DNA of 64,000 nucleotides from Candidatus Moraniibacteriota bacterium. GTDB lineage: Bacteria; Patescibacteriota; Minisyncoccia; Moranbacterales; UBA1568. The position numbers and the translations under genes were made by a program. Numbering within the stretch: the first letter of the stretch is position 1; every line of letters starts with the position of its first letter. Under the pieces are notes generated by a model. That model was not told the DNA's origin and searched no databases. It worked only from the letters and a program-made list of their open reading frames with translations. Shown in pieces: positions 831-64,000 of the stretch. The stretch is from positions 2,255 through 66,254 of the forward strand of contig JBBIRD010000001.1 in NCBI GenBank assembly GCA_037441965.1. The letters run 5' to 3'.

Positions 831-3800
831 ATGGTTCGTATCTCACCAAAAAATATTCTTTTGTATGTAGCACTCCTTGTAGTGCCTCTTTTTGTTTACA
901 TTTTTTGGCAAATGTCTTCTCCAGAAACGATCGTAAAGACCGTCAAAAAATATGAACAAGCTGGAGAGAAAGTAAGGCAAGATCTTATCAAGAGCCCGAC
1001 TCTTCCAATAGTAGAAAAAGAGAATACATATCAGGTAGTTGACTCTTCGATAGAAGATATCAGTATTCAATATGCAAAATATAGCGAAAGCATACCGCCC
1101 AAGGATGATGAGAATAATCAGCAGAATGAGCAAAAAGATCATCAAAATGGAGAAGAAAAGAAACCGCAAGATCTGTTCAAGAAACCCACTCTTTCTATCG
1201 ATTTTCCAAAAAATTATTCTCAACCAATCAATATAAAACTTGATGCAGAGAGAATGATAGATATTACAGATCTCTCTGGAACGAGTGATTATTCAGTATC
1301 GACTATTGCTCGAGAAATACCAGAGAAAAATGATCTCTCTACATCATCAATAAATAATCCTGACAGATCATTATTTCGTAAGAGTCTTGAACAGAAGTTA
1401 TTTGGTATTGATATACGGAAAATCTTTCAGAAAACGCCTTCAGAAGATACCATCCTTCACTATACGAGTCGTGACGGACGCAAGTCACTTCTGTACACAT
1501 TTATCAAAGACCCTTCTACTGGAGAGAAAACACTCAAACATTGGACTCTTTATGAATACGGTACCGGTACAGAACAAGAGCAATACCAATTTTCAAATGC
1601 CAAGGTTAAGATAAATGCTGAAGGTATCGCAGAGGTCTATTATTTTGGGACGCAAGAAATTCAGAATGAAAAAGTAAAATCAGAAGTGAGTCCTGATCTC
1701 TTGGCACGAGCACAGCGGGCAATGGAGAAAGAAACAGGTCAAGATATCCTTCTGAGTAGGAATAATCCAGATTTTACTCTTCCTGCACCGTATTATATCG
1801 ATAAAAACGGAGAACAGCACAATGCAGAATGGCAGTGGAATGCTGATAAACAGATACTCTCAGTGAAATTTGATCCAGAGAGAAATATGTATCCGATCGC
1901 TCTTGATCCGACACTTTCTTTTACTGCTCCGGGTCAATCAAATTCGATGAGTATGATAACAGGATCGAGTCCTTCGTCCTTTGCGATTGGTGATTTCAAT
2001 AATGATGGGAAAAATGATCTGGCTGTTGGAGCTGATACGGTAGTGATTTTTTACGGTGGCTTTACCTTTTCAAAAAGTGTTGATTCTGCAGATGTTGTTA
2101 TCAGTAGTACCTCTTATGATGGCGTGGGATTTGGAGCTGGACTAGTTGCAGGAGATTTTGATGGTGACAATAAAACTGATTTACTCGTTCTTGGAAGTTG
2201 GGGAACATGGTATGATCCTGACTACGCCGTATATATATTTTATAATAGCTCCATTCGTACAGGATCTTATAACAATGCCGATTTTCAGAATAGCTCTTTC
2301 AGGGGAAGGCTTTCTATTGGTTTAGGCGATTTGAATGATGATGGGAAAAAAGATCTTATAATAGGAGAACCTAATAATCGTTATAAAGCCGATTCGGTCT
2401 ATATCTATTATGCAGGTATTCCTCTGTCAAGTGGCCCGCAAGTGACTCTCACAGGCATCACTGATACGGATGGAGGAAATCTGAGAGGTGCTTTCGGAAG
2501 TTCTTTTGGTGTCGGTGATTTCAATGCGGATGGCAAGAACGACATTGCTGTGAGCGCTCCCGCTTTTGGATCGTATTATAATACTGGACAATATCCTGGT
2601 TGGTATAATACATACCAAGGGAGAATATATATTTTCTACGGTGGTTCTATCACTACAAAGAATGCTTTATCTGCTGATAGAGTGATCATTGGTGAAGCAG
2701 GTGGGCTAGGTAGAGAAATTTCAGGAGTGGTCGATCTCAATGGAGATGGATATGTAGATATTTTGACAATAGATACCGGTCCGCAAAAACTTTCAATGTT
2801 TTATAACAATGCGGGTACTATTTCTACTCCTCCTGATGTTTCGATTGCTTCTGCATTTGTTTATGGTGCCACTTGGAATGATTTTAATGGTGATGGGCGT
2901 GCTGATTTTGCGATAATAAATCGGTTTTATTCAAGTATAGATATTATTTATAATGATGGTGATTATCCGGCGGATATGGCTAATGCTGATGTGCGTATTG
3001 GTGGACAACCAGTATTTTATAATAAGGCACATATTGTGTCTTCAGGCGATTTGAATGGTGATGGACAAGCAGATATCGTGACAAATTCACAGGATGGATC
3101 AAATACATCTATCCTCTATTCTCAGAATGGACAAGTGAACACAAATCAGTATGCTCTTGGAGAAGCATCAGGAGATGCTTTCGGCACTGCTATGGTTGCA
3201 GGAGATTTCAATGCTGATGGCACGACGGATCTCGCAGTAGGTGCACCTGCTGGATCTGGACACTCTTCGAATACCGGACGAGTCTATCTTTTTTATAACC
3301 GAGGATCATATCCTCGTGATGCCAGTTCTGCTGATGTGATTATTGACGGAGGAGCGATAGATGATTTTTTTGGTTTTTCATTGATTGCTGGTGATTTCAA
3401 TGGCGACAAAAAAATTGATTTTGCGGTCGGGTCCCCAGGAAGTTCTTTGAATACTGGAAGTACATATGTTTTCTATGCAGATGGGACAAATGATTTTGGA
3501 ACAATATTTTGTACCTCGAGCTTTCCGACGCTTTGTAGCGCAAGCAATGCTGATGTTATCCTTACAGGTGGATTGCCTGGCATTGGGATTGGATCGTCGT
3601 TTGGAACAACACTCACAACGGGTGATTTCAATAGTGATGGAAAAATGGATCTGGCTATCGGTGCCACAGGATATAGTTCAAATACTGGGAGTGTATCTGT
3701 ATTCTATGCCCCATTTAGCGGAGTGAATGTTACTCTGACGGGAGAAAATGTTAATGATTTGTTTGGAAAAGCGCTGATAGCGGGCGATTTCAATCATGAC

Positions 3801-6800
3801 AATAGGACCGACCTTGCAGTCGGGGCTACGGGATATAGTTCTGCCACTGGTCGTGTCTATTTGTTTTACAATAGTGGGAGTACTCTCCCTACGACTGCCA
3901 GTCTTACGATTACCGGATCTCAGACAACTCAGTCTTTCGGATATGCTTTGGCAGTAGGAGATTTCAATGCTGACAATAGTACGGATCTCGTGGTAGGGAC
4001 TCATTCGGATTTTCTCTTTCCGAGAATGTGTACTGATGATCCTAGTGCTGACTTCGTTATTTATTATCCCTGTAATTATTATGATGCTGGGAGGGTTTAT
4101 ATTTTCTATGGTGATAGTACTATTCCTACGACCGCTAATACGGCAGATATTATCTTAGATGTTAATGACTTGTCCGCCACTGCACAACCACGATATTTTG
4201 GATCTTCATTGGCCACAGGAGATTTGAATGCTGATGGGAAAATAGATTTGGTTATTGGACAACCAAATTACGACGGCACAACTTATGTTGGTCTTGTTCG
4301 TATTCTCTATAATGATGGTGCTCTTGGGACTGATGTAACTATTAAAGGATGGAGCAATAATTCTTTTCTTGGTACCAGTCTTGTTACAGGAGATTTCAAT
4401 GCTAATGGTCGGACAAACTTGGTTGTGGGAGAAGGATTATCAGTTGGTGCAGGACGGATATCATTTTTCGAAACGCGTGATAATTTTGTATGGAATCCTC
4501 AAACATTGTCTCTCGCAGAAGGAGCGACAATGAAAGGTGATATGCTTGGTCAAGAGCAGAGAATCTCTGGTAGTGTAAATGCGGAGTTGTTTGGGAGTTC
4601 TCTTGCATCAGGGGATTTCAATAATGACGGGAAGAATGATCTCGCTGTCGGAGCGAGCGGATCATCTTCTCTCTATATATTTTATGCTGATGGCGAATAC
4701 CCTGTGAGAAGTTCAGATGCGAATGTTGTGATCAAAGGAATGTCAGTGACAGGATTAGGAACCACCCTTATCGCTGGAGACTTTAATGATGATGGAAAAA
4801 CTGACATTGCTACATCTAATCTCGAGTCTGTCTATATTTTCTATAATGATGGTTCATATCCTTTAGATGCTGTTACTGCGGATGTTGTTATTGCCGGAGA
4901 AACAGCCTATAGTTCAGGTTCTGCTTTTGGATCTTCGATGGTTTCGGAAGATATGAATGATGATGGGAAGAAAGATCTCGTTATCGGTTCATACGGATAT
5001 TCTACTTCTGCTTTTACAGCGACGAACACCGGTCGCGTGTATATCTATTATGCGAACGGAACACGAAATTTTGTCTGTACAACATCTCCTTGTACGGCTT
5101 CGGATGCTGATGTGATTATTAACGGATCAGAAGGATCCTATTTTGGTTATCAGATAGTGACAGGCGATTTTAATACCGATAATAAGACAGATTTGACGGT
5201 GAGTGCGCCTTTCCTTCAGACGAGTAATACAGGTAGAGTATACATATTTTATGTTGATGGGACTAATAATTTTGGAACAACGAGTTGTGTTGGAACGCCA
5301 GCACTCTGCAATGCTAGTGATGCTGATGTAACGATTATGAGTGAGGTGATTTCTTCTATGAATATCGATGGACTTGGTTACTCGATAGCTTCTGGTGATC
5401 TCAATAATGATGGGAAAATAGATTTGGCTATTGGAACGCAATCGTATTGTTATGACGATATTACTCAAGGTTGTTCTGGACGTATGTATTTAATATATAA
5501 TCAAGGTTCTGGGATATATCCTGCAAATGCAGGGGGTGCTGATGTGATCATAGCTGGTGGGCAAGATAGTTTTCTTGGTAGAAAGATTGCTATTGGTGAT
5601 GTTAATAGAGATAATCGTGAAGATCTTTTGGTATGGAGAGGAGATGTTACTAGTACTCACTATCTGGATGTATTTCTCAATGATGGATCAGGGTATCCGA
5701 CAAATCTCTCTGGAATAATAGAAAGTGATGTTAATTTTACTTATCCAGCAATGACAAATGATATGGACTCTTCTCAGGTTATTTTTGATGATTTGAATGC
5801 TGATGGATATCAAGATCTCGTCATCAGTGATATTGGTTTTAATGGAAAAGGAAAGATTTCTCTTTATACAACAAATGATACGAGTATCAGTGGTGAAGCA
5901 ACAGGAAATTATTTTGGTTCAGCTCTGGCAATAGGAGATTTTAATGCTGATGGGAAGAAAGATCTTGCTGTGGGTGCGCCCGGATATTCTTCAAATACCG
6001 GTCGTGTATATATTTTTTATAATGATAATCATCTTCCGTCATCTGCTTTTCTGGCTGATGCCATTATCACAGGCGAGACGACAGGTGATCAATTTGGGAA
6101 ATCGATTTCTCTTGTTGATTTCAATATTGATGGAGAACAGGATCTGGTTGTTGGTGCGAGTGGATATAGCACAAGTAAAGGAAGTGTATACTTTTTTGCT
6201 AATCTTGGAACAGGGGTTTATCCTGTGTCTGCAAGTGGTAGAGATACATTGATTGTTGGTGAGGCGGACAATAATTATTTTGGTGAAGTATTAGCATCAG
6301 ATGATATGGATCATGATGGATGGGCCGATATGGTTGTAGGTGCTCGAGGATATTTGTCAAATGCGGGTCGCGTTTATATGTTTTATTCGGATGGTGTATA
6401 TCCTGCAACATCCGATCTGGCAGATAGTATTATTACTGGTGAAACAGGCATCTTGTTCGGATCAGCTCTTGCTACAGGAGATTTTGATAGAGATGGCAAG
6501 AAAGATGTCGCAGTGAGTGCGCCTGGATATTCTTCAAATACCGGTCGTGTATATATTTTCTATTACAATGTAGGACTTGGCACATTTCCATCGACTGTTG
6601 CTACGGCCAATGCTACTATTACAGGATCTTTATATACACTTCCTGTGCCTTGCTATTTTTCTTGTACAGCTTTTGATCCATATTTTGGTTCAGCACTCGT
6701 TTCTAGTGATTTCAATAATGATGGCAAGACTGATTTAGCTGTTGGGTCTTACAATTATGGTTTTCAGAATTGGGATAGAGATCCTATGGATATCGATGCG

Positions 6801-7313
6801 AATCTCACTACATATCACTTTGGTCGTGTTGATATTTTTTATAATACTGCCACGGGTATATATCCTACGAGCGCGAGCAATGCTAATGTGACTATGGTAC
6901 CAGAATCAAATTCGTATCTTGGATCTTCTCTTTCTGTTGGTGATGTAAATGCTGATAAAAAGGCAGATCTGATAGCAGATGTTGCGAATGGTGTCTTTGT
7001 TTTTTATAATGATGGAGCGTACCCAGATAATGCCTATCCGGATATACGATCTGTTTTTGAACCAGATCTCAGGCCGTCGGTCAAAGTGAATACCCCTCAT
7101 ATTTCTGTCGTCGGCGACTTCAATGATGATGGAAAGGGTGATATAGTAACAGGTATCGGTGAATATTATTACTATGGGCCACTCTATTCTCAACTACTCA
7201 ATACGACTGGCTATGTGACGACAACGATTTCTGAAGTTCGTACTATTGATCGTTTCCTTCGTCTTCGCTTACGAGGCACTGCGAAATTTCAGGGACAAAA
7301 TAGTATACGATAA
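831..7313 (+). CDS. Giant (2160 aa) membrane-anchored surface protein with more than 25 FG-GAP/integrin-alpha-like repeats
   Basis: There is an N-terminal TM helix (LLYVALLVVPLFVYIFW). The motif GDFNxDGKxDLAVGAP...GRVYIFY recurs throughout, as do Cys-x(4-6)-Cys inserts (FCTSSFPTLCSASNADV, FVCTTSPCTASDADV, TSCVGTPALCNASDADV). Confidence 0.8.
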   Translation: MVRISPKNILLYVALLVVPLFVYIFWQMSSPETIVKTVKKYEQAGEKVRQDLIKSPTLPIVEKENTYQVVDSSIEDISIQYAKYSESIPPKDDENNQQNEQKDHQNGEEKKPQDLFKKPTLSIDFPKNYSQPINIKLDAERMIDITDLSGTSDYSVSTIAREIPEKNDLSTSSINNPDRSLFRKSLEQKLFGIDIRKIFQKTPSEDTILHYTSRDGRKSLLYTFIKDPSTGEKTLKHWTLYEYGTGTEQEQYQFSNAKVKINAEGIAEVYYFGTQEIQNEKVKSEVSPDLLARAQRAMEKETGQDILLSRNNPDFTLPAPYYIDKNGEQHNAEWQWNADKQILSVKFDPERNMYPIALDPTLSFTAPGQSNSMSMITGSSPSSFAIGDFNNDGKNDLAVGADTVVIFYGGFTFSKSVDSADVVISSTSYDGVGFGAGLVAGDFDGDNKTDLLVLGSWGTWYDPDYAVYIFYNSSIRTGSYNNADFQNSSFRGRLSIGLGDLNDDGKKDLIIGEPNNRYKADSVYIYYAGIPLSSGPQVTLTGITDTDGGNLRGAFGSSFGVGDFNADGKNDIAVSAPAFGSYYNTGQYPGWYNTYQGRIYIFYGGSITTKNALSADRVIIGEAGGLGREISGVVDLNGDGYVDILTIDTGPQKLSMFYNNAGTISTPPDVSIASAFVYGATWNDFNGDGRADFAIINRFYSSIDIIYNDGDYPADMANADVRIGGQPVFYNKAHIVSSGDLNGDGQADIVTNSQDGSNTSILYSQNGQVNTNQYALGEASGDAFGTAMVAGDFNADGTTDLAVGAPAGSGHSSNTGRVYLFYNRGSYPRDASSADVIIDGGAIDDFFGFSLIAGDFNGDKKIDFAVGSPGSSLNTGSTYVFYADGTNDFGTIFCTSSFPTLCSASNADVILTGGLPGIGIGSSFGTTLTTGDFNSDGKMDLAIGATGYSSNTGSVSVFYAPFSGVNVTLTGENVNDLFGKALIAGDFNHDNRTDLAVGATGYSSATGRVYLFYNSGSTLPTTASLTITGSQTTQSFGYALAVGDFNADNSTDLVVGTHSDFLFPRMCTDDPSADFVIYYPCNYYDAGRVYIFYGDSTIPTTANTADIILDVNDLSATAQPRYFGSSLATGDLNADGKIDLVIGQPNYDGTTYVGLVRILYNDGALGTDVTIKGWSNNSFLGTSLVTGDFNANGRTNLVVGEGLSVGAGRISFFETRDNFVWNPQTLSLAEGATMKGDMLGQEQRISGSVNAELFGSSLASGDFNNDGKNDLAVGASGSSSLYIFYADGEYPVRSSDANVVIKGMSVTGLGTTLIAGDFNDDGKTDIATSNLESVYIFYNDGSYPLDAVTADVVIAGETAYSSGSAFGSSMVSEDMNDDGKKDLVIGSYGYSTSAFTATNTGRVYIYYANGTRNFVCTTSPCTASDADVIINGSEGSYFGYQIVTGDFNTDNKTDLTVSAPFLQTSNTGRVYIFYVDGTNNFGTTSCVGTPALCNASDADVTIMSEVISSMNIDGLGYSIASGDLNNDGKIDLAIGTQSYCYDDITQGCSGRMYLIYNQGSGIYPANAGGADVIIAGGQDSFLGRKIAIGDVNRDNREDLLVWRGDVTSTHYLDVFLNDGSGYPTNLSGIIESDVNFTYPAMTNDMDSSQVIFDDLNADGYQDLVISDIGFNGKGKISLYTTNDTSISGEATGNYFGSALAIGDFNADGKKDLAVGAPGYSSNTGRVYIFYNDNHLPSSAFLADAIITGETTGDQFGKSISLVDFNIDGEQDLVVGASGYSTSKGSVYFFANLGTGVYPVSASGRDTLIVGEADNNYFGEVLASDDMDHDGWADMVVGARGYLSNAGRVYMFYSDGVYPATSDLADSIITGETGILFGSALATGDFDRDGKKDVAVSAPGYSSNTGRVYIFYYNVGLGTFPSTVATANATITGSLYTLPVPCYFSCTAFDPYFGSALVSSDFNNDGKTDLAVGSYNYGFQNWDRDPMDIDANLTTYHFGRVDIFYNTATGIYPTSASNANVTMVPESNSYLGSSLSVGDVNADKKADLIADVANGVFVFYNDGAYPDNAYPDIRSVFEPDLRPSVKVNTPHISVVGDFNDDGKGDIVTGIGEYYYYGPLYSQLLNTTGYVTTTISEVRTIDRFLRLRLRGTAKFQGQNSIR

Positions 7314-7403
7314 GAAAATTATCTCTATCTTTTGATAGAATAATTGCGATAGCAGAAGATATGCCAGTGAGAAAGAGAAATAACTTGAGGAAGCAATGAA
7401 ACT

Positions 7404-9293
7404 ATGGAGATGAAAAGATTTTTTCTCAAAAAAAGAATACTCTATATTTGTTTTCTTCTTCTTTCTATCTTTATTGGGAATAAATTTTTTGATTATCAGA
7501 AAACAGCACAGCATCTTCAAGGAATAGAGAAATTACTTGCGTTAACATCTGAAGATTTAAATGATATTAAATCTGATCCTCATAAAACAAAAGAGTCAGT
7601 AAGGGAAGCAATCGATGCATATTCTCAGCATATTTCAGACACCCTCTCGATTGCTCAAAAAATAACAAATATGGAGGCTTCTCAGGAAGCGTTCGTTGCT
7701 ATCTTTAGGAAGGTTGCTTCACAATTGGGAGATATCCGAATGATTCAGCAGAATACTGAATTAACATCATCACAATCTGGAATTATTGAAAGAATAAGAG
7801 ATGTAAATATGTATGTGCAGGAGCAATCAGTAGAGCGACTCACAACACTCGCTCAGAGTGATAACGCTATAGACCAATCGAAAGAAGGGAAGAAGATAGG
7901 TGCATTACCCTCTTGTTCTGATTGCAATGTTATTCTTATCTCCCTTACCACTCTTCGTCCTGATCGTATGGGTATTTATGGATATCAGAAACAAACTACT
8001 CCGCATATTGACGCATTCTTCAAGAACTCAATTATCTTCAGAAATACGGTTGCGCCTACTTCTTGGACTACCCCAAATGCTCTATCACTCTTTACTGCTG
8101 TTTTCCCATACCGACATAACATTATTTCAAGAGAAATTGATCCGATTTACAATCGAAAAATTCTGACATTGGCAGAGATGCTGAAAAAAAATAATTATAC
8201 TACAGGGGCATTTACAGGAGGAGGGGATTATAATAATAAATACAGTGGACTCAACCGTGGGTTTGATTTCTACCTTGATGAAGCAAATTATAAGACATTC
8301 AAAATAAAAGCAGATATTTCTATCGGGACAGGCCCTCTTTTTTATTCTCCACTTCGAGAGTTTCTTCCGCTAGGAACCGATTGGATGGAACAGAATTATA
8401 AAAAAAAGTTTTTTCTTTTCTTGCAGGGATATGATCCTCACTGTCCTTTGAGTCCACGCGAACCATTTGCTCAGCAATTTACTAAAAAGATGAAAAGTGA
8501 TGTAGATTTTTCTGTATGTCATACAACATACGATGATACGGAGCCATTATATGAAAATGGAAAGAAATATTGGGAAGTAATGACGACATCAGATGGAACA
8601 AGAAGCCCTTTCAAGATGCGACTTTCTCAGGAAGATGTTGATTATATGAATGCTCTGTATGATGCTCGTGTGGCAGAGATGGATTTTTATTTAAATAATT
8701 TCTTTGAAAAACTCAAGAGTCTTGGTCTAGAAGAAAAGACGGTGATCGTATTGATGGCAGATCATGGAGAGATGCTCGGAGAACACGGACGGTTTATGAG
8801 GGGTGGCACTATTAGAGGAAACTCATATAAGCAATCTCTTCATTTTCCTCTTCTTATCAAGCATCCAAAAATAACAGAACCTCTCATCGTGGAGGATATT
8901 GTGAATACAGTGGATATTATGCCGACACTTCTTTCTATGTTGGATATAACAGATCCTCAGGAAGATATACGACAAGGTCACTCGCTTCATATCTCAAACT
9001 TCCAGAGTGATCCGACCAATGAATATGGTTTTTCAGGAGCCAAATATGAAAGGAGTAATGTGATTGGATATTTTGATTTTCCTACTGCATCTGAATCTGT
9101 TCAGGACAAGAAATGGAAATTGATCAAAGAAACTATCTTCGATAATGATGGTTTTTCAGTAGAAAAAATCTCATATAAACTCTTTGATCTTGAGAATGAT
9201 CCTAACGAGAACATCAATCTTTATGACGCAGAAAGAGAAGAAGCAGAGAAGCTCAAAGTTGTATTAGAGAAGTGGCTTGATCAATATCGATGA
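7404..9293 (+). CDS. Membrane-anchored sulfatase/LtaS-like enzyme of the alkaline phosphatase superfamily
   Basis: It has an N-terminal TM helix and the metal-ligand motif DHGEMLGEHG. Where a sulfatase has CxPxR, this protein has TTPN, which implies a Thr nucleophile as in LtaS/EptA; that reading is an inference. Confidence 0.65.
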   Translation: MEMKRFFLKKRILYICFLLLSIFIGNKFFDYQKTAQHLQGIEKLLALTSEDLNDIKSDPHKTKESVREAIDAYSQHISDTLSIAQKITNMEASQEAFVAIFRKVASQLGDIRMIQQNTELTSSQSGIIERIRDVNMYVQEQSVERLTTLAQSDNAIDQSKEGKKIGALPSCSDCNVILISLTTLRPDRMGIYGYQKQTTPHIDAFFKNSIIFRNTVAPTSWTTPNALSLFTAVFPYRHNIISREIDPIYNRKILTLAEMLKKNNYTTGAFTGGGDYNNKYSGLNRGFDFYLDEANYKTFKIKADISIGTGPLFYSPLREFLPLGTDWMEQNYKKKFFLFLQGYDPHCPLSPREPFAQQFTKKMKSDVDFSVCHTTYDDTEPLYENGKKYWEVMTTSDGTRSPFKMRLSQEDVDYMNALYDARVAEMDFYLNNFFEKLKSLGLEEKTVIVLMADHGEMLGEHGRFMRGGTIRGNSYKQSLHFPLLIKHPKITEPLIVEDIVNTVDIMPTLLSMLDITDPQEDIRQGHSLHISNFQSDPTNEYGFSGAKYERSNVIGYFDFPTASESVQDKKWKLIKETIFDNDGFSVEKISYKLFDLENDPNENINLYDAEREEAEKLKVVLEKWLDQYR

Positions 9294-9305
9294 TATTTCT
9301 ATTGT

Positions 9306-9905
9306 ATGAAGTATAAAAGAATTTTTATTGTTATCATTATCAGTCTTTTTATTGGCATTGGTTCTAGTATTTTCTGGCAATTTTATTATGATCAGAAACA
9401 TTCATTGAAGAATCTAGGCTTTTCAATAGCTGGAAGAGAGAAGTTCTTTGTTGAAGAAAGATTCCCTCGTCATTTCTCTGATTATGAAGAAGAAGCTCTT
9501 TTTGCTAATGGAGAATCAGGTATCCTCCAACTTACATTGATTTCAAATCTCACAAGAGAGCGCGCACAAGAGTATGCTCGATCACAATTTTCCGTGTTTG
9601 AAAGTATGTTCGATAAAAGATTGCCACCATATCCAGAGCTTATTACCAATGCCACTGGTTGTGCTGATGAGTTTTTGCCACAGAAGAAGGAAACGCCCAT
9701 TGGAAACTATTATACGGCTTATGCAGGTAATCGATTTAATTTCGGTATCTGTGATCAGAGTATTGCCAAATATAAATCTGGTGTTGGTATTTTTTATTGC
9801 GAGAAACTTCGGCGAGAAGTGAAACTCTCTTATTTTATTGATAAATCTGAGAATTTTGATACAATAGATGCATTGATGAATTCATTCATCTGTCTTGATA
9901 AGTAA
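9306..9905 (+). CDS. Hypothetical membrane-anchored protein
   Basis: It has an N-terminal TM helix and sits 12 nt after the upstream gene and 13 nt before the next one. I recognise no motifs. Confidence 0.5.
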   Translation: MKYKRIFIVIIISLFIGIGSSIFWQFYYDQKHSLKNLGFSIAGREKFFVEERFPRHFSDYEEEALFANGESGILQLTLISNLTRERAQEYARSQFSVFESMFDKRLPPYPELITNATGCADEFLPQKKETPIGNYYTAYAGNRFNFGICDQSIAKYKSGVGIFYCEKLRREVKLSYFIDKSENFDTIDALMNSFICLDK

Positions 9906-9918
9906 TGTGTAAACGAAT

Positions 9919-11886
9919 ATGCAAAAAATTATTTTTTTTGTTGTTGTGATTATTTTTGGGGGAGTTTTCTTTTTTTCTTCTTTACAAAAGAAAGAAGTGA
10001 GTCAAGTGTATTGGTTTATTCCTGATGGTATGAGAGCTGATCCTGATGTTTTTAATATATATAAATGGGCAAAGGAAGGAAAACTTCCCAATATCAAAAA
10101 ATTAATGGATCAAGGCTCTTATGGATATTCTATCCCTGATTTTCCATCTCATACTCCAACAAACTGGGCATCATTGATGACTGGAACGCATCCTGTGACA
10201 CATGGTATCTCTGATGGCCCTATGCATGTCGAAGGTTATCCTCTCGAAAAACCCTCTGTTGCTGGTTTTGGTTCTCAGGCGAAAAAGACGGATCCTATCT
10301 GGAAGACACTAGAGTCAGCAGGGAAGAAAGTAGCACTTCTCTCTATTCCTGGATCAACACCGCCAGAATTAAAAAATGGTATTACAATTCGTGGTCGCTG
10401 GGCTCCTTGGGGTTTTGATACGCCTGCTATCAATTTTGAACCAAAAGAGAAACTAGAAGAACGCAAATCCACAGGAAGAGGATTTAAGCTTTTTTATCTT
10501 GGGCAACAATTAACGCAATTTATTGATAAAAATACTCCTTCCGAATGGAGTTTTTCACCAGAATCATTCAGTCCGAGTATAGAGATGAAAATAAATGTGT
10601 ATGGTATGACGCTTTTTGGTCTTGTGATAGATAAAACTGATGATAATGAAATAAACTATGACTCTGTTGTATTCTCTTTTGATAAGAAAACAGAGATAAC
10701 GACATTGAAACAAGGAGAGTGGAGTGATTGGACACCGGTAACGCTCACTTTCAAGGAATCAACAGTGGCCTCCGATATGAAAATTAAGGTTATCAAACTG
10801 TGGAATACGGGTAATTTCCGTGTTCGTGTTTTCTTCAATAACGCAAATGAGTTTCTTACAGAACCATCTTCTGTAGCGAGAGAGATGACAACAGCGATTG
10901 GGCCGATGGTTGATTTTGTAGACAACTGGCCTGCTCAACTGATTTATGAAGAAGAGGATAAAGATACGTTTCTTGAAGAAGCTAATATGTCATTAGATTG
11001 GCACAAGAAAGCAGCTGGATTTATGTTGGATACTTACAAGCCAGACTTTTTCATACAAGATACTTATACCCCAAATCAGATGCTTGAAAGCAGGTGGTGG
11101 CACGGGAAAATAGCTGGTGAGAAAATGGATTATAACACACAAGATTCTGCATCATCTGAGTGGAATGATATTTACTCGATGTATAAAAAGTTAGACGATG
11201 TTCTTGGAGAGGCGATGAAACATCTTGATAAGAATGCTCTTATTGTTCTTTCGTCTGATCATGGCATTATCCCTATTTATAAACAAATAAAAATTAATAA
11301 TCTTTTCGCTCAAAAGGGTTGGCTTAAATATACTATCAATCAGACAACAGGAGAACCAACGATTGACTGGGAGCATAGTAAGGTTGTTTATCTTAAGATG
11401 GCATATGTCTACATCAAACCAGAAGGACTAGGTGGTCCTTGGAAAAGGGGATCAGGACCAGAATATGAGAAATTGCGTCAGGAGGTGATAGATGCTCTAA
11501 AGGAGGTAAAAGATGATAATGGTGTGAGCCCGATTACAGAAGTAGTCCGATGGGAAGATGCTCCCTCTTTCCTTGAATTACCAACGGACAGAATCGGAGA
11601 TTTAGTGCTTGAGGCTACCCCAGGGTATCAACTATGGGAAGAAGTTGATGCTAATCAGCAGATATTCGGTAATCCGTTAACAACAGGATACAAACAAGCA
11701 GTAGATCCAAAAACGACAAAAGGATTGTGGACCCCGTTTATTATTGCCGGTCCTGGTGTAAAACAAGGATATCAGATGACTGATCCTATTAGTCATATCG
11801 ATCAACTTCCAACCATACTTGATCTTCTTCATATTAATATTCCTACTGATGTTGTAGGAAAAGTACTGAAAGAAATTCTTAAGTAG
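9919..11886 (+). CDS. Membrane-anchored nucleotide pyrophosphatase/phosphodiesterase (NPP)-like enzyme of the alkaline phosphatase superfamily
   Basis: It has an N-terminal TM helix and the NPP-type motifs YWFIPDGMRADPD, a SHTPTNWASLMTG Thr-nucleophile motif, and SSDHG. It also carries an extra C-terminal domain. Confidence 0.65.
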   Translation: MQKIIFFVVVIIFGGVFFFSSLQKKEVSQVYWFIPDGMRADPDVFNIYKWAKEGKLPNIKKLMDQGSYGYSIPDFPSHTPTNWASLMTGTHPVTHGISDGPMHVEGYPLEKPSVAGFGSQAKKTDPIWKTLESAGKKVALLSIPGSTPPELKNGITIRGRWAPWGFDTPAINFEPKEKLEERKSTGRGFKLFYLGQQLTQFIDKNTPSEWSFSPESFSPSIEMKINVYGMTLFGLVIDKTDDNEINYDSVVFSFDKKTEITTLKQGEWSDWTPVTLTFKESTVASDMKIKVIKLWNTGNFRVRVFFNNANEFLTEPSSVAREMTTAIGPMVDFVDNWPAQLIYEEEDKDTFLEEANMSLDWHKKAAGFMLDTYKPDFFIQDTYTPNQMLESRWWHGKIAGEKMDYNTQDSASSEWNDIYSMYKKLDDVLGEAMKHLDKNALIVLSSDHGIIPIYKQIKINNLFAQKGWLKYTINQTTGEPTIDWEHSKVVYLKMAYVYIKPEGLGGPWKRGSGPEYEKLRQEVIDALKEVKDDNGVSPITEVVRWEDAPSFLELPTDRIGDLVLEATPGYQLWEEVDANQQIFGNPLTTGYKQAVDPKTTKGLWTPFIIAGPGVKQGYQMTDPISHIDQLPTILDLLHINIPTDVVGKVLKEILK

Positions 11887-11951
11887 ATGCAGAGAAAAAG
11901 AAAGAGTCTTATCTTTTTTACCAGTGAAGGATTCTTAATGAAGAGAGATTA

Positions 11952-13040
11952 TTATCTCTCTTCATTGTATATTTTCTCGACGAAACTATTGTCTATATAT
12001 TGACGGAGATCAGCCTTCTTATCGATAGAGTGGTATTTGAACATAAGATCCTGCATTTCATTGAGAAGATCGATCGATACAGTTGGGTACAGGTCATAAT
12101 GCGGGGTATTCATACCATATTTTTCCCCTAGTTGAATATTGCTTCGAGTTTCTTTTATTGAGATTGCTGGGTTATTTTCTTTTGTTATATTCTGTTCGAA
12201 TCGGATTCTCTTCATATATGTTCGAACGATATGTTCAACTATTTCCGGATGATCTTTGATAAAATCTCGACGGAAAACAAGGAGGGCGTGTGAGAGTTCT
12301 GGATTAACCCAATCGAGTCTATGATAAATATACGCTTGTCCATTGTCCACCATATCGTAAAATTGTGTGAGATGGAAATATCCACCATCTGCTTCGCCAC
12401 TGATGATTTGATTTCTATATTCGTCATCATCTACTTGATCGTTGATGGTTACATCTTTCTCTTGAATGCCGATAGAGTTTAAAAATTCTCGTAAAAATAT
12501 CGCATCTCCTGGTCCTGATCTTCTCGTTACCAATGTTTTTCCTTTGATATCCTCAGGTTTTTTTATAGTGACACCGGTTCGAAATATAATCGCGTGACCT
12601 GGAAGATCTTTTGCATCATGTCCAAGTTCTGCGACTGCTACCATATCTATGCCTTGTATAATACCTTTAATGAAAGAACTTTCTCCTGGTGTCGATCCCT
12701 CCGCTTCCCCATCATTCATTTTCTTGAGCAATTCTTCACCTGTTGCTTTTGCAGCGTTTTCTTTATTTTCTATACTGTCATATTGTTTCGAAAGAATGTA
12801 GTAATTACTATTATCTCTTAGCGAGTGAGTAATAAACTGGACGGAAATGTTGTCAGTATCGAATTCATTCTCTGCGTATGCTCGATATAAGAGAGAAGTT
12901 CTTCCTCCAAGAAAATATGCAATTGAAATATCTTTGTGCACCTCTTGTTTTTTATCATTGTGGAAATACAAAGTTCCAACGATGATAACGGATCCGATGA
13001 GGAATATGAAGAATATTTTATGGTGCAGAAAATGAAGCAT
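11952..13040 (-). CDS. Membrane-anchored NMT1/SsuA-like periplasmic binding protein (ABC substrate-binding fold), orphan
   Basis: It has an N-terminal TM helix and a segment (IKGKTLVTRRSGPGDAIFLREFLNSIGI) resembling SsuA/TauA/NMT1 binding proteins. It also has a low-complexity E/K/G-rich insert, and no permease or ATPase gene lies nearby. Confidence 0.4.
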   Translation of the reverse strand: MLHFLHHKIFFIFLIGSVIIVGTLYFHNDKKQEVHKDISIAYFLGGRTSLLYRAYAENEFDTDNISVQFITHSLRDNSNYYILSKQYDSIENKENAAKATGEELLKKMNDGEAEGSTPGESSFIKGIIQGIDMVAVAELGHDAKDLPGHAIIFRTGVTIKKPEDIKGKTLVTRRSGPGDAIFLREFLNSIGIQEKDVTINDQVDDDEYRNQIISGEADGGYFHLTQFYDMVDNGQAYIYHRLDWVNPELSHALLVFRRDFIKDHPEIVEHIVRTYMKRIRFEQNITKENNPAISIKETRSNIQLGEKYGMNTPHYDLYPTVSIDLLNEMQDLMFKYHSIDKKADLRQYIDNSFVEKIYNEER

Positions 13041-42244: not shown

Positions 42245-42624
42245 AGAGAGTACGAATTGAGAAAGTGCTTTGCAGTACTTTTTTCTTTTCTCAAGAATAT
42301 TCTGTTGATTTTCCTGTCAAGTTATTTGTCAAACAGTTCTGAAGAAATATGTGTTTCTCTTTGTAATGAAGAGGTTCTACAAAGAGCAATATGTATTTCC
42401 GCAGAAGTGCCTTAACAACTTATGTCTTTTTCAAAAGAATCGAAGATTATATGGTAGCGGAAAGTGATCAGATTTTTTTGAGATAGTCTAAATAGAAAAG
42501 GTCAAGCAAATCATAACGAGAAAAAACAGTGCGTCGAATGAGCAAACATTCTTCACTGTTAACCGATTGTCCGTGAGCGTCTTTAGTTTCGATTAGAGCG
42601 TTTGCGGACAAGAGAAAAAAAGAA

Positions 42625-45550
<2,926 letters not shown>

Positions 45551-45675
45551 TCTTTTTTTCTAACCTTGTTTTCTTTTCGCAAGAAAAGAATCGAAGTTAC
45601 GGTTAGCAGTGAAGAGTGCTTGTTAAAAGGGGAATCTTATTCTATTATAGATAGACAAATTTGGAGGGGAATGTT

Positions 45676-45787
45676 TCCGGTGCTTCTAGCGTTGTGGACA
45701 CACCTGATCCCATACCGAACTCAGCAGTTAAGCACTTCAGCACCGATGGTAGCCTTTAGTGGCAAGAGTAGGACAGTGCCGGGAACA
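45676..45787 (+). rRNA. rrf: 5S ribosomal RNA
   Basis: CCTGATCCCATACCGAACTCAGCAGTTAAGC...GATGGTAGC is characteristic of 5S rRNA, and it lies about 125 nt after the 23S. Confidence 0.88.
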
Positions 45788-59371: not shown

Positions 59372-61945
59372 ATGAATGAAAAGAAAAGAATACTTTTGTG
59401 TTATTTTGGTGTATCACATTTTTCTTATACTCCTACAGATATAGGTTATATTGTAGCTATTTTAGAACAGAAATTTTCATCAACAGAGTATATTTTTGAT
59501 ATCGTTCAATTAGATTATGAATTATCTGTTGATAGAAAAGAGGGTTCGATTGTTAATCCTCATCTAAAATATATTGAAAGAAGTACGCGACTTATTGAAT
59601 ATTATCATCCATACGCAGTATTTTTCTTCTTAGAGAATGTCTTATGGAGTAAAGTGTTTGCACTAGGAAGAACAAAGAGTATTGCTAAGAATCTTCGTTC
59701 TAATAACCCAAAATTATTTATTGGTTTACAGAGTTTTAAGATTCAACAAATACAAATAGATCAAGTGTTAGATAACAATTTAGCGGATTGTATAATTATC
59801 GGTGACCCAGAAGAATTATTTCTAAAATTGAGCGAGATATTATTGAGAATGCCTGTCATTGGAGTGAGATATCAAAAACAATTTGGTGAAATGAACTATA
59901 AGAAGCAGTCTTTCCTTATGGCAAAAGAAAACGTAGAGACTATTTCAGTTGGTAGTCTTGATCGAATACCTTCTCCGTACCTAAATCATACTTTTGATAA
60001 TTTTCTCCAATCATCACAAATAATATCTAATGGACATTTTCGAGCATTCCTCGTTTCATCTCGAGGGTGTCGTTTTGGTTGTTATTATTGTTTTCGGAGT
60101 ACAAAATTTGAAAAGATACAATATTTTTCAGCAAAACGATTTTATGATGAATTAGAATATTTATTTAATACTTTCCGTATACATCATTTTTTTGTTTTAG
60201 ATGACGCTTTTATTTATTCTCGAAAACGCTTAGAGGAATTTGAACATGAGTTTCAAACTCGATTAAATAAGAATCCTGACTTACAAAAAGTAGATCTTTT
60301 CGTTATGGCAAGACCAGAAAGCATAAACGAGGAAATAGTAAAAATATTGAAAGCGATGAATGTAAAGTATATACAGATTGGATTACAGACAGTAAATCCG
60401 TCTTTGCAGGTTTTTATGAGAAGGAGACAAGATGTGGTTCATTTTGTGAAAATCAGAGAGTGGTTAAAAAAGTATAACATCCTTTTGCATCTAGATGTTG
60501 TGATTGGTTTACCGGGAGATTCTGTTGAATGGATGAAGGAAACAATGCGTTATGTATTACTTATGGATCCATTTTCTGTTCAGATTAAGCAGTTTTATCT
60601 CGGACCTAATACGCTTTTTTCAATTAGAACAAAAGAATACAATATTAAGATTGATGATACTGAATCAAGTTTTAATACACCATATGTGATCAGTGCAAAC
60701 AATATAGATGATCAGTATTTTACAGAGACAAATCATTTCATTATGAATCAAATCAAGGATAATCCACAGATTCGGTGGAAATATTTATCGAAGAAGCAAT
60801 CATTTATTAGTGGTTTATCTACAAAGATTTCTTCGGAGCATGAAACATCTCTTCATAATGAGCATAGAGGTTCAGACGATCGGATTCAGAAATACTTTAA
60901 TGTTTTATGGCATATAGGCAGCAGTAAAGGTAAGAATAGTGTATATGTGGTAACAGCAGTAGATGATCAGTACGCTTATATTGTTTCGCGTTCTGCAACA
61001 ATTTGTATGGCAATAGATCAATTATCAGGGTGTATAGTATGGAAATTTGAAGTTTTTTCCTTCCAAACGGATCATATATCTCCTTATCTTAAGGTGTCTG
61101 CAGGCAAAGTATATTTTCGAGCAGTCGATCGAAATCTGTATTGCTTAGATGCAAAAAATGGAAATCGCTTATGGGTTTTTCTTGAAGAAAATGTAGAAGA
61201 TGATACTTGTGTTATTGATCAATATGTCCATTGTATATCTATTGTTACATCAGGTGGTCTTTTTACACGAAGAAAAAAAATAGTAACTTTAGATATGAGA
61301 ACTGGTAAGAAGAGATGGGAACATTTTATTAGTATTGATCAATCAATAGCCTTGATACATGATGAAAAGAATCACTTTATGTATATTCGTGAGGGTGACA
61401 GGCAGGTTTCTTCGGTACAGATAGAGAATCATAAATTAAAGTGGACACATTGTTATTATCAGAATATAGACGGGCAGATAGTTATTGATCAATCAGGAAA
61501 GGATCTTTTCTTTTTATCTACTGATGGAAAGCATTATTCTATAAAAACAAAAGACGGATCCACGGAAATGCTTTTTCAATCGCGTGGATTTGATAAACAA
61601 TCTATTCTCTTTGTATATAATGAATATATTATTTTATATTCGTGTAATAAGGGAATACAATGCATTCATCTAAAGACAGGAATGATTCGGTGGATATACT
61701 CTTTGAACAGCGTTACTTCTGTAAATTATGTGGTACTAGATGCAAGTATGTTTATTTATAAAGAAGAGGATTTACTCATTGAGATTGATATAGTGACAGG
61801 AATGACAAAATCGTGTTTTTCCCTGACGGGTATTGGTCAAGATAGTATTCTTATATATAGCGAAAAAAAGAAACGCTTTTTCTTATCTATGAATTCTGGT
61901 GATTTATTTTGTTTTTCAAGACAGATGTTCTCACATTTACGATAG
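59372..61945 (+). CDS. Radical SAM enzyme with a B12-binding-like N-terminal domain, fused to a C-terminal PQQ/BamB-like beta-propeller of about 350 aa
   Basis: The CxxxCxxC motif SRGCRFGCYYCF is present, preceded by a Rossmann-like N-terminal domain. The C-terminus has 7-8 PQQ-type blades (LYCLDAKNGNRLWVF, IVTLDMRTGKKRWEHF, IHLKTGMIRWIY). Confidence 0.75.
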   Translation: MNEKKRILLCYFGVSHFSYTPTDIGYIVAILEQKFSSTEYIFDIVQLDYELSVDRKEGSIVNPHLKYIERSTRLIEYYHPYAVFFFLENVLWSKVFALGRTKSIAKNLRSNNPKLFIGLQSFKIQQIQIDQVLDNNLADCIIIGDPEELFLKLSEILLRMPVIGVRYQKQFGEMNYKKQSFLMAKENVETISVGSLDRIPSPYLNHTFDNFLQSSQIISNGHFRAFLVSSRGCRFGCYYCFRSTKFEKIQYFSAKRFYDELEYLFNTFRIHHFFVLDDAFIYSRKRLEEFEHEFQTRLNKNPDLQKVDLFVMARPESINEEIVKILKAMNVKYIQIGLQTVNPSLQVFMRRRQDVVHFVKIREWLKKYNILLHLDVVIGLPGDSVEWMKETMRYVLLMDPFSVQIKQFYLGPNTLFSIRTKEYNIKIDDTESSFNTPYVISANNIDDQYFTETNHFIMNQIKDNPQIRWKYLSKKQSFISGLSTKISSEHETSLHNEHRGSDDRIQKYFNVLWHIGSSKGKNSVYVVTAVDDQYAYIVSRSATICMAIDQLSGCIVWKFEVFSFQTDHISPYLKVSAGKVYFRAVDRNLYCLDAKNGNRLWVFLEENVEDDTCVIDQYVHCISIVTSGGLFTRRKKIVTLDMRTGKKRWEHFISIDQSIALIHDEKNHFMYIREGDRQVSSVQIENHKLKWTHCYYQNIDGQIVIDQSGKDLFFLSTDGKHYSIKTKDGSTEMLFQSRGFDKQSILFVYNEYIILYSCNKGIQCIHLKTGMIRWIYSLNSVTSVNYVVLDASMFIYKEEDLLIEIDIVTGMTKSCFSLTGIGQDSILIYSEKKKRFFLSMNSGDLFCFSRQMFSHLR

Positions 61946-62034
61946 TTATCACAGAGAGACATTGCTATATTTACTCATTTATGTTATTTTAAGAAAGGAG
62001 TTTTTTATATTTAATTTTTTTAACATATTTTTGT

Positions 62035-62247
62035 ATGTTGTACAAAATAAAGAAAAGAACATTGTTCGTCTCAGGGGTATTCCTTCTGAGTTTGCTGAGT
62101 TTTTTAAACATAAATAATAAAGAGCGTATCTCACGATCTACCGTAAACTTTATACCAGAAGCGAATGCTGATGTTCCATATTGTAGTCCTTGCGGATGTC
62201 CTTATACACCGCAAGAGTGTTCGGGAGATGCAGGAGATGGAATTTAG
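62035..62247 (+). CDS. Small (70 aa) Cys-rich peptide with an N-terminal signal/leader-like segment
   Basis: A positively charged and then hydrophobic N-terminus (KIKKRTLFVSGVFLLSLLSFL) precedes the C-terminal core CSPCGCPYTPQECSGDAGDGI. It lies 90 nt after the rSAM gene and 27 nt before the next gene. Confidence 0.45.
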   Translation: MLYKIKKRTLFVSGVFLLSLLSFLNINNKERISRSTVNFIPEANADVPYCSPCGCPYTPQECSGDAGDGI

Positions 62248-62274: not shown

Positions 62275-63162
62275 ATGGATAAATATAAAATAAAATTTTT
62301 GCTCCTCTTTTTATTGATTCTTGTTCTAGTATGTTTTGCATATTTCTTCTTCAAGTTCAAGAAACCATCTGTACCTATTGATGAAACATATGTTCTTGGT
62401 AAACAAAACGAATTATATAGTTTTAATGATTCTTCACAATCCAAAGTAGAAGTAATAAAAGAATTAAAAGATGTTTCTTTGGATACAAAAATAAACACAA
62501 AAACAAGGCTATTAGCAGGAACAGTGGTCGTTGGATCTTTTTTTGATTTTGGTATGCAATTAGAAAAAGGATTTTCTCCAAATTCTTTTACCGAAAGAGA
62601 GATCTATGAATATTCTAAACAAATAAATTCTTTAGGTAATTCGAAAACAGATTTACTGACAGCATATATTGGTTTGACATTTTATCCTCAAGAGATGACT
62701 GCTGAATCAGTCTCTTCTCTTCTCCGTTCATATCAAGAATATGCAAAGAATCTATCCTCTACAGATACAGATTGTTCTGGGGAATCCAAGTTTGCTTCTG
62801 TGTTGTATTTGTCTCAGAAAAACAATCTCACCCCTGTTATTGATGAGTTTGGTAATTATTTTGATGCTTTTGAGCGAGCAGATAATTTATGTCGTACAAA
62901 TCGCAAGAAGAATGTTTTTAGGCAATTTATGTGGTTAGCTGCTTTGAGTGATATTGGTAAATCTTCTAGAGAAGAAGAAAAGGCTCAGGAAATTGTTCAA
63001 TTTCTGATCGATAAAGAAAATTTGGTCAGTAAAGCAACATTATCGCAATACCTTAAAAATAGTTACTTTGCTTCTAAGAAAGAGCCTGATACTGTTATCA
63101 TTGTTGATCGATTGATTGCAAAATATCCAGCATTTAAATCTTTCGTAGAGAGTTTACAATAA
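62275..63162 (+). CDS. Hypothetical membrane-anchored protein in the rSAM cluster
   Basis: It has an N-terminal TM helix and I recognise no motifs. Spacing is tight on both sides. Confidence 0.5.
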   Translation: MDKYKIKFLLLFLLILVLVCFAYFFFKFKKPSVPIDETYVLGKQNELYSFNDSSQSKVEVIKELKDVSLDTKINTKTRLLAGTVVVGSFFDFGMQLEKGFSPNSFTEREIYEYSKQINSLGNSKTDLLTAYIGLTFYPQEMTAESVSSLLRSYQEYAKNLSSTDTDCSGESKFASVLYLSQKNNLTPVIDEFGNYFDAFERADNLCRTNRKKNVFRQFMWLAALSDIGKSSREEEKAQEIVQFLIDKENLVSKATLSQYLKNSYFASKKEPDTVIIVDRLIAKYPAFKSFVESLQ

Positions 63163-63194: not shown

Positions 63195-64000
63195 ATGCAA
63201 ATGAAAAATGCATCTTTGAATTTTTTAAAGACAGAAATTGAAAAGCAATGTTTTGAAACAATTAATGATAATGAAATACTACGTCAGTCATTTCCTCATA
63301 TGAAATGGTTGTTTGATTTCCGAATGATGATTTTGAAATCAAATTACCTTAATCTTATTAGCGAAATATTTTGGGAGAAATATCATAATCACAAGCCTTT
63401 TCAGATTGGTGGGTTAGAGATGGCTGCTATACCTCTTGTGTCAGCTATTTTGATGAAATTTCATGAACACGGAAGAGAGCTAAATGGTTTCATAATCAGG
63501 AAGTCAAGAAAAAAAACTGGTTTGTTGAAGATGATTGAAGGTGAAATTACTCACGAGCCAATTATTCTTATTGATGATTTAATCAATTCAGGTTCGAGCA
63601 TCTTGAGGCAAATTGATGTTTTAGATCAATTGAACAGGCGTGTAGATGAGATTTTTGTAATACTTCGATTTCGAGATAAAGAACACTATTCGTTTCTGCA
63701 GGAGAAGAATATAGTTCTTTATTCTCTTTTTGAGTTAGATGATTTTACAGATACTCTATTCATCTCTAATCTTAAAGAAAGTATAGAAAATAATCAGGGT
63801 ATTCAAAATCCATTCGAATCAAATCCTGTGTGGTATTTTCAAGGGAAATCACCAAATTATTTTTTTGTTTTTCCAAAATCTGCACCAATTGTTTGTGGTA
63901 ATAAAGTTTTTTTTGGTACTGATGACGGGACATTTTTTGCGTTAGGAACAGATAGGGGAGATATACAATGGACATATAAGATTTTATTTGGATCGCAAGG
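63195..64000 (+). CDS. Type I phosphoribosyltransferase (PyrE-like) fused to a PQQ-like beta-propeller, 3' partial
   Basis: It has the PRPP-binding motif PIILIDDLINSGSS and a C-terminal PQQ-type blade FFALGTDRGDIQWTYK. The frame is open to the window end. Confidence 0.6.
   Translation, partial: MQMKNASLNFLKTEIEKQCFETINDNEILRQSFPHMKWLFDFRMMILKSNYLNLISEIFWEKYHNHKPFQIGGLEMAAIPLVSAILMKFHEHGRELNGFIIRKSRKKTGLLKMIEGEITHEPIILIDDLINSGSSILRQIDVLDQLNRRVDEIFVILRFRDKEHYSFLQEKNIVLYSLFELDDFTDTLFISNLKESIENNQGIQNPFESNPVWYFQGKSPNYFFVFPKSAPIVCGNKVFFGTDDGTFFALGTDRGDIQWTYKILFGSQ

Follow-up and report, generated by a model that had tools for sequence, protein, structure and literature searches.

Among described systems, the closest to the locus analysed here are microcin B17, whose McbA (with McbBCD) is a precursor of the linear azol(in)e-containing peptide (TOMM) type; AgrD, the precursor of the staphylococcal autoinducing peptide, whose N-terminal part is cut off by type I signal peptidase after modification at the cytoplasmic face; the bottromycin-type clusters, in which YcaO enzymes occur together with cobalamin-dependent radical SAM methyltransferases; and Sec-dependent bacteriocins and toxins, among them enterocin P, lactococcin 972 and SdpC. 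A standard Sec signal peptide has an h-region of about 7–15 residues and a c-region of about 3–7 residues before the cut. The genomes of CPR/Patescibacteria are tiny, and few natural-product pathways have been recognised in them.

We analysed a 64,000-nucleotide stretch of Candidatus Moraniibacteriota DNA (64 kb, hereafter the window), in which a 70-codon open reading frame (ORF) probably encodes the precursor of a secreted, post-translationally modified (RiPP-like) peptide, belonging to an undescribed family in CPR/Patescibacteria-type genomes. Its likeness to TOMMs, and to microcin B17 in particular, lies in a short precursor whose leader precedes a core rich in Gly, Ser and Cys, in an adjacent Cys-Ser pair of the window core that could give fused thiazole-oxazole rings, and, at related loci, in a SagD-type YcaO with a PxPxP-type C-terminus alongside a SagB/McbC-type dehydrogenase. 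However, leaders of this family have a transmembrane-length hydrophobic segment and an A-x-A site, their cores are strongly acidic and Asp-rich (a quarter of them without Cys), no E1-like/RRE partner or ABC exporter was detected, and the window has neither YcaO nor SagB. To our knowledge, the leader of the window peptide is unlike any in the TOMM family, and we know of no azole-peptide pathway with class-B radical SAM-propeller or phosphoribosyltransferase (PRTase)-propeller fusions.

The other systems differ in their own ways. AgrD is similar in outline (a helix at the N-terminus that associates with the membrane, then a short core containing Cys, then an acidic tail at the C-terminus), though there is no sequence relation, the window contains no AgrB-like protein, the enzyme set is another one, and the tail here belongs to the variable core whereas that of AgrD is a conserved recognition tail. 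Bottromycin clusters share with related loci the combination of YcaO and class-B-type radical SAM enzymes on one small ribosomal peptide, but their precursor has a C-terminal follower without N-terminal leader or membrane segment, and they are without propeller fusions, PRTase or SagB-type dehydrogenase. Enterocin P, lactococcin 972 and SdpC likewise show a basic n-region, a hydrophobic segment and A-x-A before a small secreted peptide; they are, however, unmodified or carry disulfides only, lie outside radical SAM/YcaO clusters, and have a c-region of a few residues in place of the 15–34-residue spacer found here. Because its leader is unlike those of TOMMs, its spacing departs from that of a signal peptide, a SPASM-type route is excluded for the neighbouring enzyme and the 64 kb covered, past which the cluster continues, hold no YcaO or SagB, the peptide cannot be filed as a member of the TOMM or AgrD types. 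We class it as a probable precursor of a ribosomal modified peptide, whose partner enzymes are unusual and whose family is undescribed.

The open reading frame and its family

The ORF and its parts are as follows.

62035..62247, forward strand: probable precursor-peptide gene, ATG to stop, 70 codons (70 aa) plus stop, reading MLYKIKKRTLFVSGVFLLSLLSFLNINNKERISRSTVNFIPEANADVPYCSPCGCPYTPQECSGDAGDGI
62035..62118, forward strand: leader part 1 (aa 1–28), a Lys/Arg-rich N-terminus and then the uncharged TLFVSGVFLLSLLSFLNINN
62119..62169, forward strand: leader part 2 (aa 29–45), a polar spacer closing at the putative processing site A43-N44-A45
62170..62244, forward strand: predicted core (aa 46–70), DVPYCSPCGCPYTPQECSGDAGDGI
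62182–62220, forward strand: Cys motif (C50–C62), within the predicted core
62221–62244, forward strand: Gly/Asp tail of the core

Basic residues K4, K6, K7 and R8 precede an uncharged stretch (residues 9–28), so built that leader part 1 looks like a signal anchor. The putative site reads A43-N44-A45↓D46-V47-P48, the Cys are C50, C53, C55 and C62, and the tail is SGDAGDGI. The initial annotation, made from this DNA alone, had described a basic and then hydrophobic N-terminus, a polar linker, four Cys and a Gly-rich tail, all of which are present, together with three Pro in the Cys stretch, where PYCSPCGCPYTPQEC actually has four. With 4 Cys, 2 Ser, 1 Thr and 4 Gly in 25 residues, the core has the composition expected of an azole precursor (Cys/Ser/Thr-rich near Gly). 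No double-glycine motif (GG/GA/GS) precedes the core in this ORF.

Taken unaided, the ORF did not exceed chance expectation. The window holds 153 six-frame ORFs of at least 70 aa, and at least four Cys fall inside 13 residues in 5 of its 352 ORFs of 40–120 aa. We therefore rejected the Cys cluster as evidence on its own, since the other four such ORFs, all antisense junk, match its Cys count. The lack of a Shine-Dalgarno sequence, correctly reported in the initial annotation, was similarly rejected as an argument against the gene: it is uninformative because no gene checked has one, whether in the window (starts 55376, 58305, 59372, 62035, 62275 and 63195) or in the related loci inspected. Regions upstream of those starts are A/T-rich, often with a TATAAT-like box near the start codon, and a promoter and terminator scan around the peptide gene gave nothing exceeding shuffled background.

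A single-sequence search with the window peptide returned only itself (the same sequence is present in sequencing run SRR11582171), and the family was uncovered via synteny with the neighbouring radical SAM gene and then by profiles. Loci of about 50 radical SAM homologues were fetched and their small ORFs inspected. At six of them (L004, L005, L082, L162, L164 and L165), a similarly built small ORF adjoins radical SAM or phosphoribosyltransferase genes and sits directly upstream of a membrane-anchored protein of 300–430 aa. A leave-one-out profile, built from five same-position small ORFs of related loci with the window sequence excluded, recovered the window ORF among 8,645 six-frame ORFs (E = 7.5e-5, 22 bits) as well as the held-out L082 member (2e-4), with the best noise at E = 2. 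The full family profile gives the window ORF 57 bits as its only match in the window. A profile search of 5.8 billion proteins found 14 family members, and when 1.84 billion representatives were scanned exhaustively with HMMER, 32 belonged to the family at E ≤ 1e-3. No curated Pfam or NCBIfam family fits the peptides, and the family, with members in low-GC genomes of the CPR/Patescibacteria type, is undescribed.

Conservation in homologous loci, the comparison on which the proposal of a gene depended, was found in both position and architecture. In every pair with DNA, pN lies far below pS and synonymous sites are saturated (pN 0.145 and pS 0.806 for the L005/L174 peptides; pN 0.455 and pS 0.661 for the window and L082). 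The overlapping frame at 61899–62117, raised earlier as an alternative, has no conserved counterpart; its best match (E = 1.6) is not at the corresponding position. It is because of this conservation that we judge 62035–62247, on comparative grounds, to be a real protein-coding gene.

Site and core statistics were taken over 36 family members. N-termini in the family are Lys/Arg-rich, with K4 invariant and an N-flank averaging +4.0/−0.1 charges, followed by an uncharged run (median 19 residues) whose C-flank is about neutral. This charge asymmetry predicts an N-in/C-out orientation. A polar spacer of 15–34 residues (17 in the window) separates the uncharged segment from a near-invariant processing motif, A-x-A↓D-[VI]-P, in which P-3 is A, V or T in 36/36 members, P-1 is A in 35/36, P+1 is D in 28/36, P+2 is V or I in 23/36 and P+3 is P in 27/36; A45 is an invariant alignment column. 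The positive n-region and the small residues at −3 and −1 are those of a Sec signal peptide, whereas the h- and c-region spacing is not, the uncharged run having a median of 19 residues and A-x-A lying 15–34 residues further on. The putative site thus follows signal-peptidase-I rules, yet its distance from the hydrophobic segment is much greater than a standard signal peptide would have.

Beyond the site, the core is hypervariable, with a length of 17–59 residues, a net charge of −2 to −10 and a composition of 31% G, 16.5% D, 12% S and 7.6% C, often ending in an aromatic or aliphatic residue. A conserved leader and cut site with a hypervariable core is, as a sequence pattern, the usual signature of a ribosomal modified-peptide precursor. 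Conservation of the Cys spacing, a check proposed with the initial annotation, was found in the nearest sub-clade: C-x2-C-x-C-x6-C is kept in P0060, P0063, P0069 and P0088, which have the motif CSxCGCx[YW]Txx[EQ]C in common with the window peptide. P0063 is the L082 orthologue, syntenic with the window (YchF, radical SAM-propeller, peptide). Other sub-clades have different patterns (for example AQA↓QC[SG]xCA..SC), and 9 of the 36 members have no core Cys. In these alignments Cys is a sub-clade trait; what marks the family as a whole is a leader resembling a signal anchor, together with A-x-A↓D-V-P and an acidic core rich in Gly and Asp.

Neighbouring genes and related loci

Three genes around the peptide in the window bear on its interpretation.

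59372..61945, forward strand: radical SAM-propeller enzyme, from Pfam and NCBIfam matches, AlphaFold2 model, Foldseek and PDB profile matches
62275..63162, forward strand: partner protein of 295 aa, an N-terminal membrane helix and an all-alpha helical-repeat domain
63195..64000, forward strand: PRTase-propeller, an orotate-PRTase-like domain joined in one protein to a PQQ/BamB-like propeller; the gene is truncated by the end of the window

The radical SAM enzyme comprises a Rossmann-like domain (aa 1–185), a barrel (aa 200–480) and a BamB-like 8-bladed beta-propeller (aa 509–857), and the only invariant Cys in its family alignment are those of C233-x3-C237-x2-C240 (CxxxCxxC). In Foldseek comparisons, about 490 columns of its AlphaFold2 model (pLDDT 84) superpose on the cobalamin-dependent methylases TokK, CysS and TsrM, and the C-terminal half superposes on BamB; PDB profile matches to CysS and TokK reach E = 1e-15. 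The window enzyme has no match to a SPASM domain, and its family none to the B12-binding Pfam model PF02310. Its modelled fold places it structurally among the cobalamin (class B) enzymes, with no SPASM domain. The SPASM-type (sacti/ranthi) route is therefore excluded for this enzyme; the thioether modification suggested earlier is disfavoured, and methylation or other class-B chemistry is favoured instead.

A partner-type gene always lies directly downstream of the peptide gene (gaps of 15–38 nt), with protein identities of 41–47% within a sub-clade and 14–20% across sub-clades. The model of the window partner matches only generic or designed helical-repeat peptide-binding scaffolds, and we read it as a probable scaffold or chaperone, not an enzyme. 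A role as leader peptidase was rejected, given that no catalytic residue is conserved and that the model matches helical-repeat scaffolds only; the distant equivalent in L004 has a sub-threshold Peptidase_C70 match (E = 0.007). The PRTase domain retains an intact PRPP motif, IILIDDLINSGS (aa 123–134), and the window PRTase-propeller shares 45% identity with its L166 counterpart, a full-length protein of 572 aa. Searches of the 64 kb window with the cluster YcaOs (tblastn) found no YcaO, SagB is also absent, and the cluster continues past 64000. Nor were a leader-binding (RRE/E1-like) protein, a protease or an exporter recognised in the window, or a C39-peptidase ABC transporter among the genes flanking the peptide at 45.9–64 kb. 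The remaining window is ordinary chromosome (EF-G, EF-Tu, SecY, LeuRS, 23S/5S rRNA, FtsW, RNase J, TrpRS, PMM and YchF). Its 23S and 5S rRNA genes (42620–45784) have no adjoining 16S, making this an unlinked rRNA operon, and a 2,160-aa protein at 831–7313, almost wholly FG-GAP repeats (at least 14), is probably a giant surface protein.

Genomic context covers about ten of the family's loci. The radical SAM enzyme accompanies the peptide in 8 of these, window included, and the PRTase-propeller in 7 (window, L162, L164, L165, L004, L170 and L172); cluster enzymes share 35–47% identity between genomes, and gene order is rearranged. In L164, L004 and L170, the peptide, partner and PRTase-propeller occur with a SagD-type YcaO, identified by Pfam PF02624 in L164 and L170 and by alignment in L004, and with a SagB-family dehydrogenase. 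The YcaO C-terminal PHPFP motif is conserved, the L164 SagB scores 133 bits on TIGR03605 (cutoff 78), with NCBIfam TIGR03604 matches also in related loci, and L170 and L166 also have a nitroreductase-family gene. The earlier guess of a peptide-maturation neighbourhood was thus borne out by the linked radical SAM-propeller and PRTase-propeller and, in relatives, by YcaO and SagB. At L170, 6048–11595 holds YcaO, SagB, PRTase-propeller, partner and a 122-aa family peptide whose long core is rich in Gly (GGGGCAGCGCAGG...); its 14 kb has no radical SAM gene, though the peptide is present.

The loci whose peptides have Cys-less cores (L162, L165 and L172) are all without YcaO and SagB, and carry instead a TPR protein and the following conserved gene.

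L162 5029–6471, L165 3196–4659, L172 4371–5813: polytopic membrane protein of 480 aa, no family match

We considered this protein as a divergent YcaO and rejected the idea, since it is a polytopic membrane protein without a family match. Nearby in L172 (2220–2942) are an Asp/Arg beta-hydroxylase (PF05118) gene and a PAP2-like gene, the former suggestive given the Asp-rich cores. The Moraniibacteriota-like clade (L005 and L174) combines the radical SAM enzyme with a ThiF-like E1.

Some cassettes occur without a family peptide (L166, L085, L086 and L088). L166 carries, at 3688–12589, SagB, YcaO, PRTase-propeller, TrpRS, a rhodanese-like gene, the radical SAM-propeller and then PMM; its flanking genes RNase J, TrpRS and PMM are those of the window, with which it is otherwise syntenic, and the family profile found no peptide/partner pair on its 16 kb contig. 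L085 and L088 have radical SAM, PRTase-propeller, SagB and YcaO genes without the small peptide, L086 has radical SAM and PRTase-propeller genes on a short contig, and L003 has the radical SAM gene only. Proteins of 143–155 aa with signal-peptide- or lipoprotein-like N-termini are encoded in L085 (6409–6876), L086 (1295–1726) and L088 (4701–5150); with the counterparts in L003 (1848–2279 and 10204–10695) the lengths span 143–163 aa. These proteins may be an alternative substrate class.

More distant proteobacterial homologues, in which only the radical SAM enzyme is shared, adjoin C39-ABC exporters, HlyD and S9 peptidases. Two such loci, L168 (5620–6096) and L169 (16629–16826), encode double-glycine-leader peptides with long (GD)n tracts and Cys-containing cores, and only in these was the combination of a double-glycine leader with C39-ABC found. 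L169 also has LanB-type dehydratase genes. An annotated 67-aa 'VTVTVT' gene in L168 (5684–5887, forward strand) overlaps, in a different reading frame, the ORF of the (GD)n peptide and seems to have been called wrongly. Considering the CPR-type family and the proteobacterial (GD)n peptides together, the radical SAM clade therefore accompanies Gly/Asp-rich peptides in two very different lineages. A full-text literature search found no description of this cassette.

Proposed maturation and rival readings

Residues 1–45 are a conserved leader and residues 46–70 a hypervariable acidic core. In the reading we favour, that of a modified-peptide precursor, a product of 70 residues would leave the ribosome before co-translational targeting, such that the core would meet cytoplasmic enzymes first. 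The enzymes acting on it would be the class-B-type radical SAM-propeller and the PRPP-binding PRTase-propeller, and the propellers of both fusions may serve as peptide-docking domains. If the genome has YcaO and SagB like its relatives, Cys (and Ser) of the CSPCGC stretch could be converted to thiazole and oxazole rings, though azole formation on the window peptide is a conjecture because the 64 kb window contains neither enzyme. The radical SAM enzyme would methylate the peptide or carry out related reactions, perhaps within its Gly/Asp part. The hydrophobic leader would afterwards insert N-in/C-out, the membrane-anchored helical-repeat partner may hold or present the peptide, and a cut after A45 would free a peptide of about 25 residues beginning DVP. 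Several observations do not sit easily with this scheme: the four related cassettes have no peptide, L170 has the peptide and no radical SAM enzyme, the A-x-A motif lies far beyond a normal signal-peptide c-region, and the window has no recognisable RRE/E1-like protein, protease or exporter.

The Sec-like look of the peptide (n-region, hydrophobic segment and a strict −3/−1 Ala rule) would also suit a small peptide, acidic and rich in Cys, that Sec exports without modification, for example a bacteriocin, a signal or a metal-binding peptide with two disulfides; signal peptidase would cut it at A-x-A, and the enzymes would act elsewhere. L170, where the peptide does without the radical SAM enzyme, fits this account, as do the DsbB, SecD and SecF genes near the cluster in L162 and L164; those genes adjoin a Cys-less and a one-Cys peptide, however, which looks like plain synteny. 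Disulfides cannot be the common function, since Cys is missing from 9 of 36 cores. Where the peptides have no Cys, YcaO and SagB are lost as well; linkage of the peptide to radical SAM, PRTase-propeller, YcaO and SagB genes holds across rearranged loci with only 35–47% identity; and modified peptides typically pair a conserved leader with a hypervariable core. We therefore regard an unmodified product as unlikely. The distance from membrane segment to A-x-A, unusual for signal peptidase, points another way, to a small, uncleaved membrane protein with a single pass, which would be paired as a structural or regulatory subunit with the helical-repeat protein downstream and whose acidic Gly/Asp tail would bind cations or a partner. 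The uncharged segment is of transmembrane length (median 19 residues), and the peptide gene always adjoins that of the membrane-anchored partner, apparently in the same operon. Yet it is difficult to account for the near-invariant A-x-A↓D-V-P if nothing is processed there, both the length (17–59 aa) and the sequence of the tail are hypervariable, unlike those of a binding subunit, and the partner itself is poorly conserved between sub-clades (14–20% identity), leaving this account slightly more improbable still.

That the ORF arose by chance in AT-rich intergenic DNA, or that frame 61899–62117 is the true gene, we consider extremely improbable. Short and Cys-rich ORFs are common in the window, the ORF has no Shine-Dalgarno sequence and a single-sequence search returned it alone; against this stand the profile homology, the conserved position and pN far below pS, while the alternative frame has no conserved counterpart and Shine-Dalgarno sequences are absent lineage-wide in the genes checked. 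As far as sequence comparison goes, this account is already refuted.

Meaning for CPR/Patescibacteria

The locus is of interest in several respects. The precursor family can now be searched for by profile, with 32 representatives at present, and the finding defines a conserved cassette with unusual enzyme fusions. That this radical SAM clade is linked with Gly/Asp-rich peptides in two phyla suggests an enzymatic activity not characterised so far. If the leader serves for recognition as well as for membrane anchoring, it would represent a new way for a cytoplasmically modified peptide to exit without a dedicated exporter.

Our data also raise the possibility, which we put forward tentatively and consider rather doubtful in full, of a distinct CPR-specific class of modified peptides, in which the signal-anchor doubles as enzyme-recognition leader and export signal and the acidic Gly/Asp-rich core is tailored by enzymes of types not known so far from such pathways, the cobalamin-type radical SAM enzyme and the PRPP-dependent PRTase, each docking by a propeller of its own. 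Were this the case, the chemistry could be new, for instance Gly/Asp modification or peptide phosphoribosylation, and the product could matter for the dealings of these epibiotic bacteria with hosts or metals.
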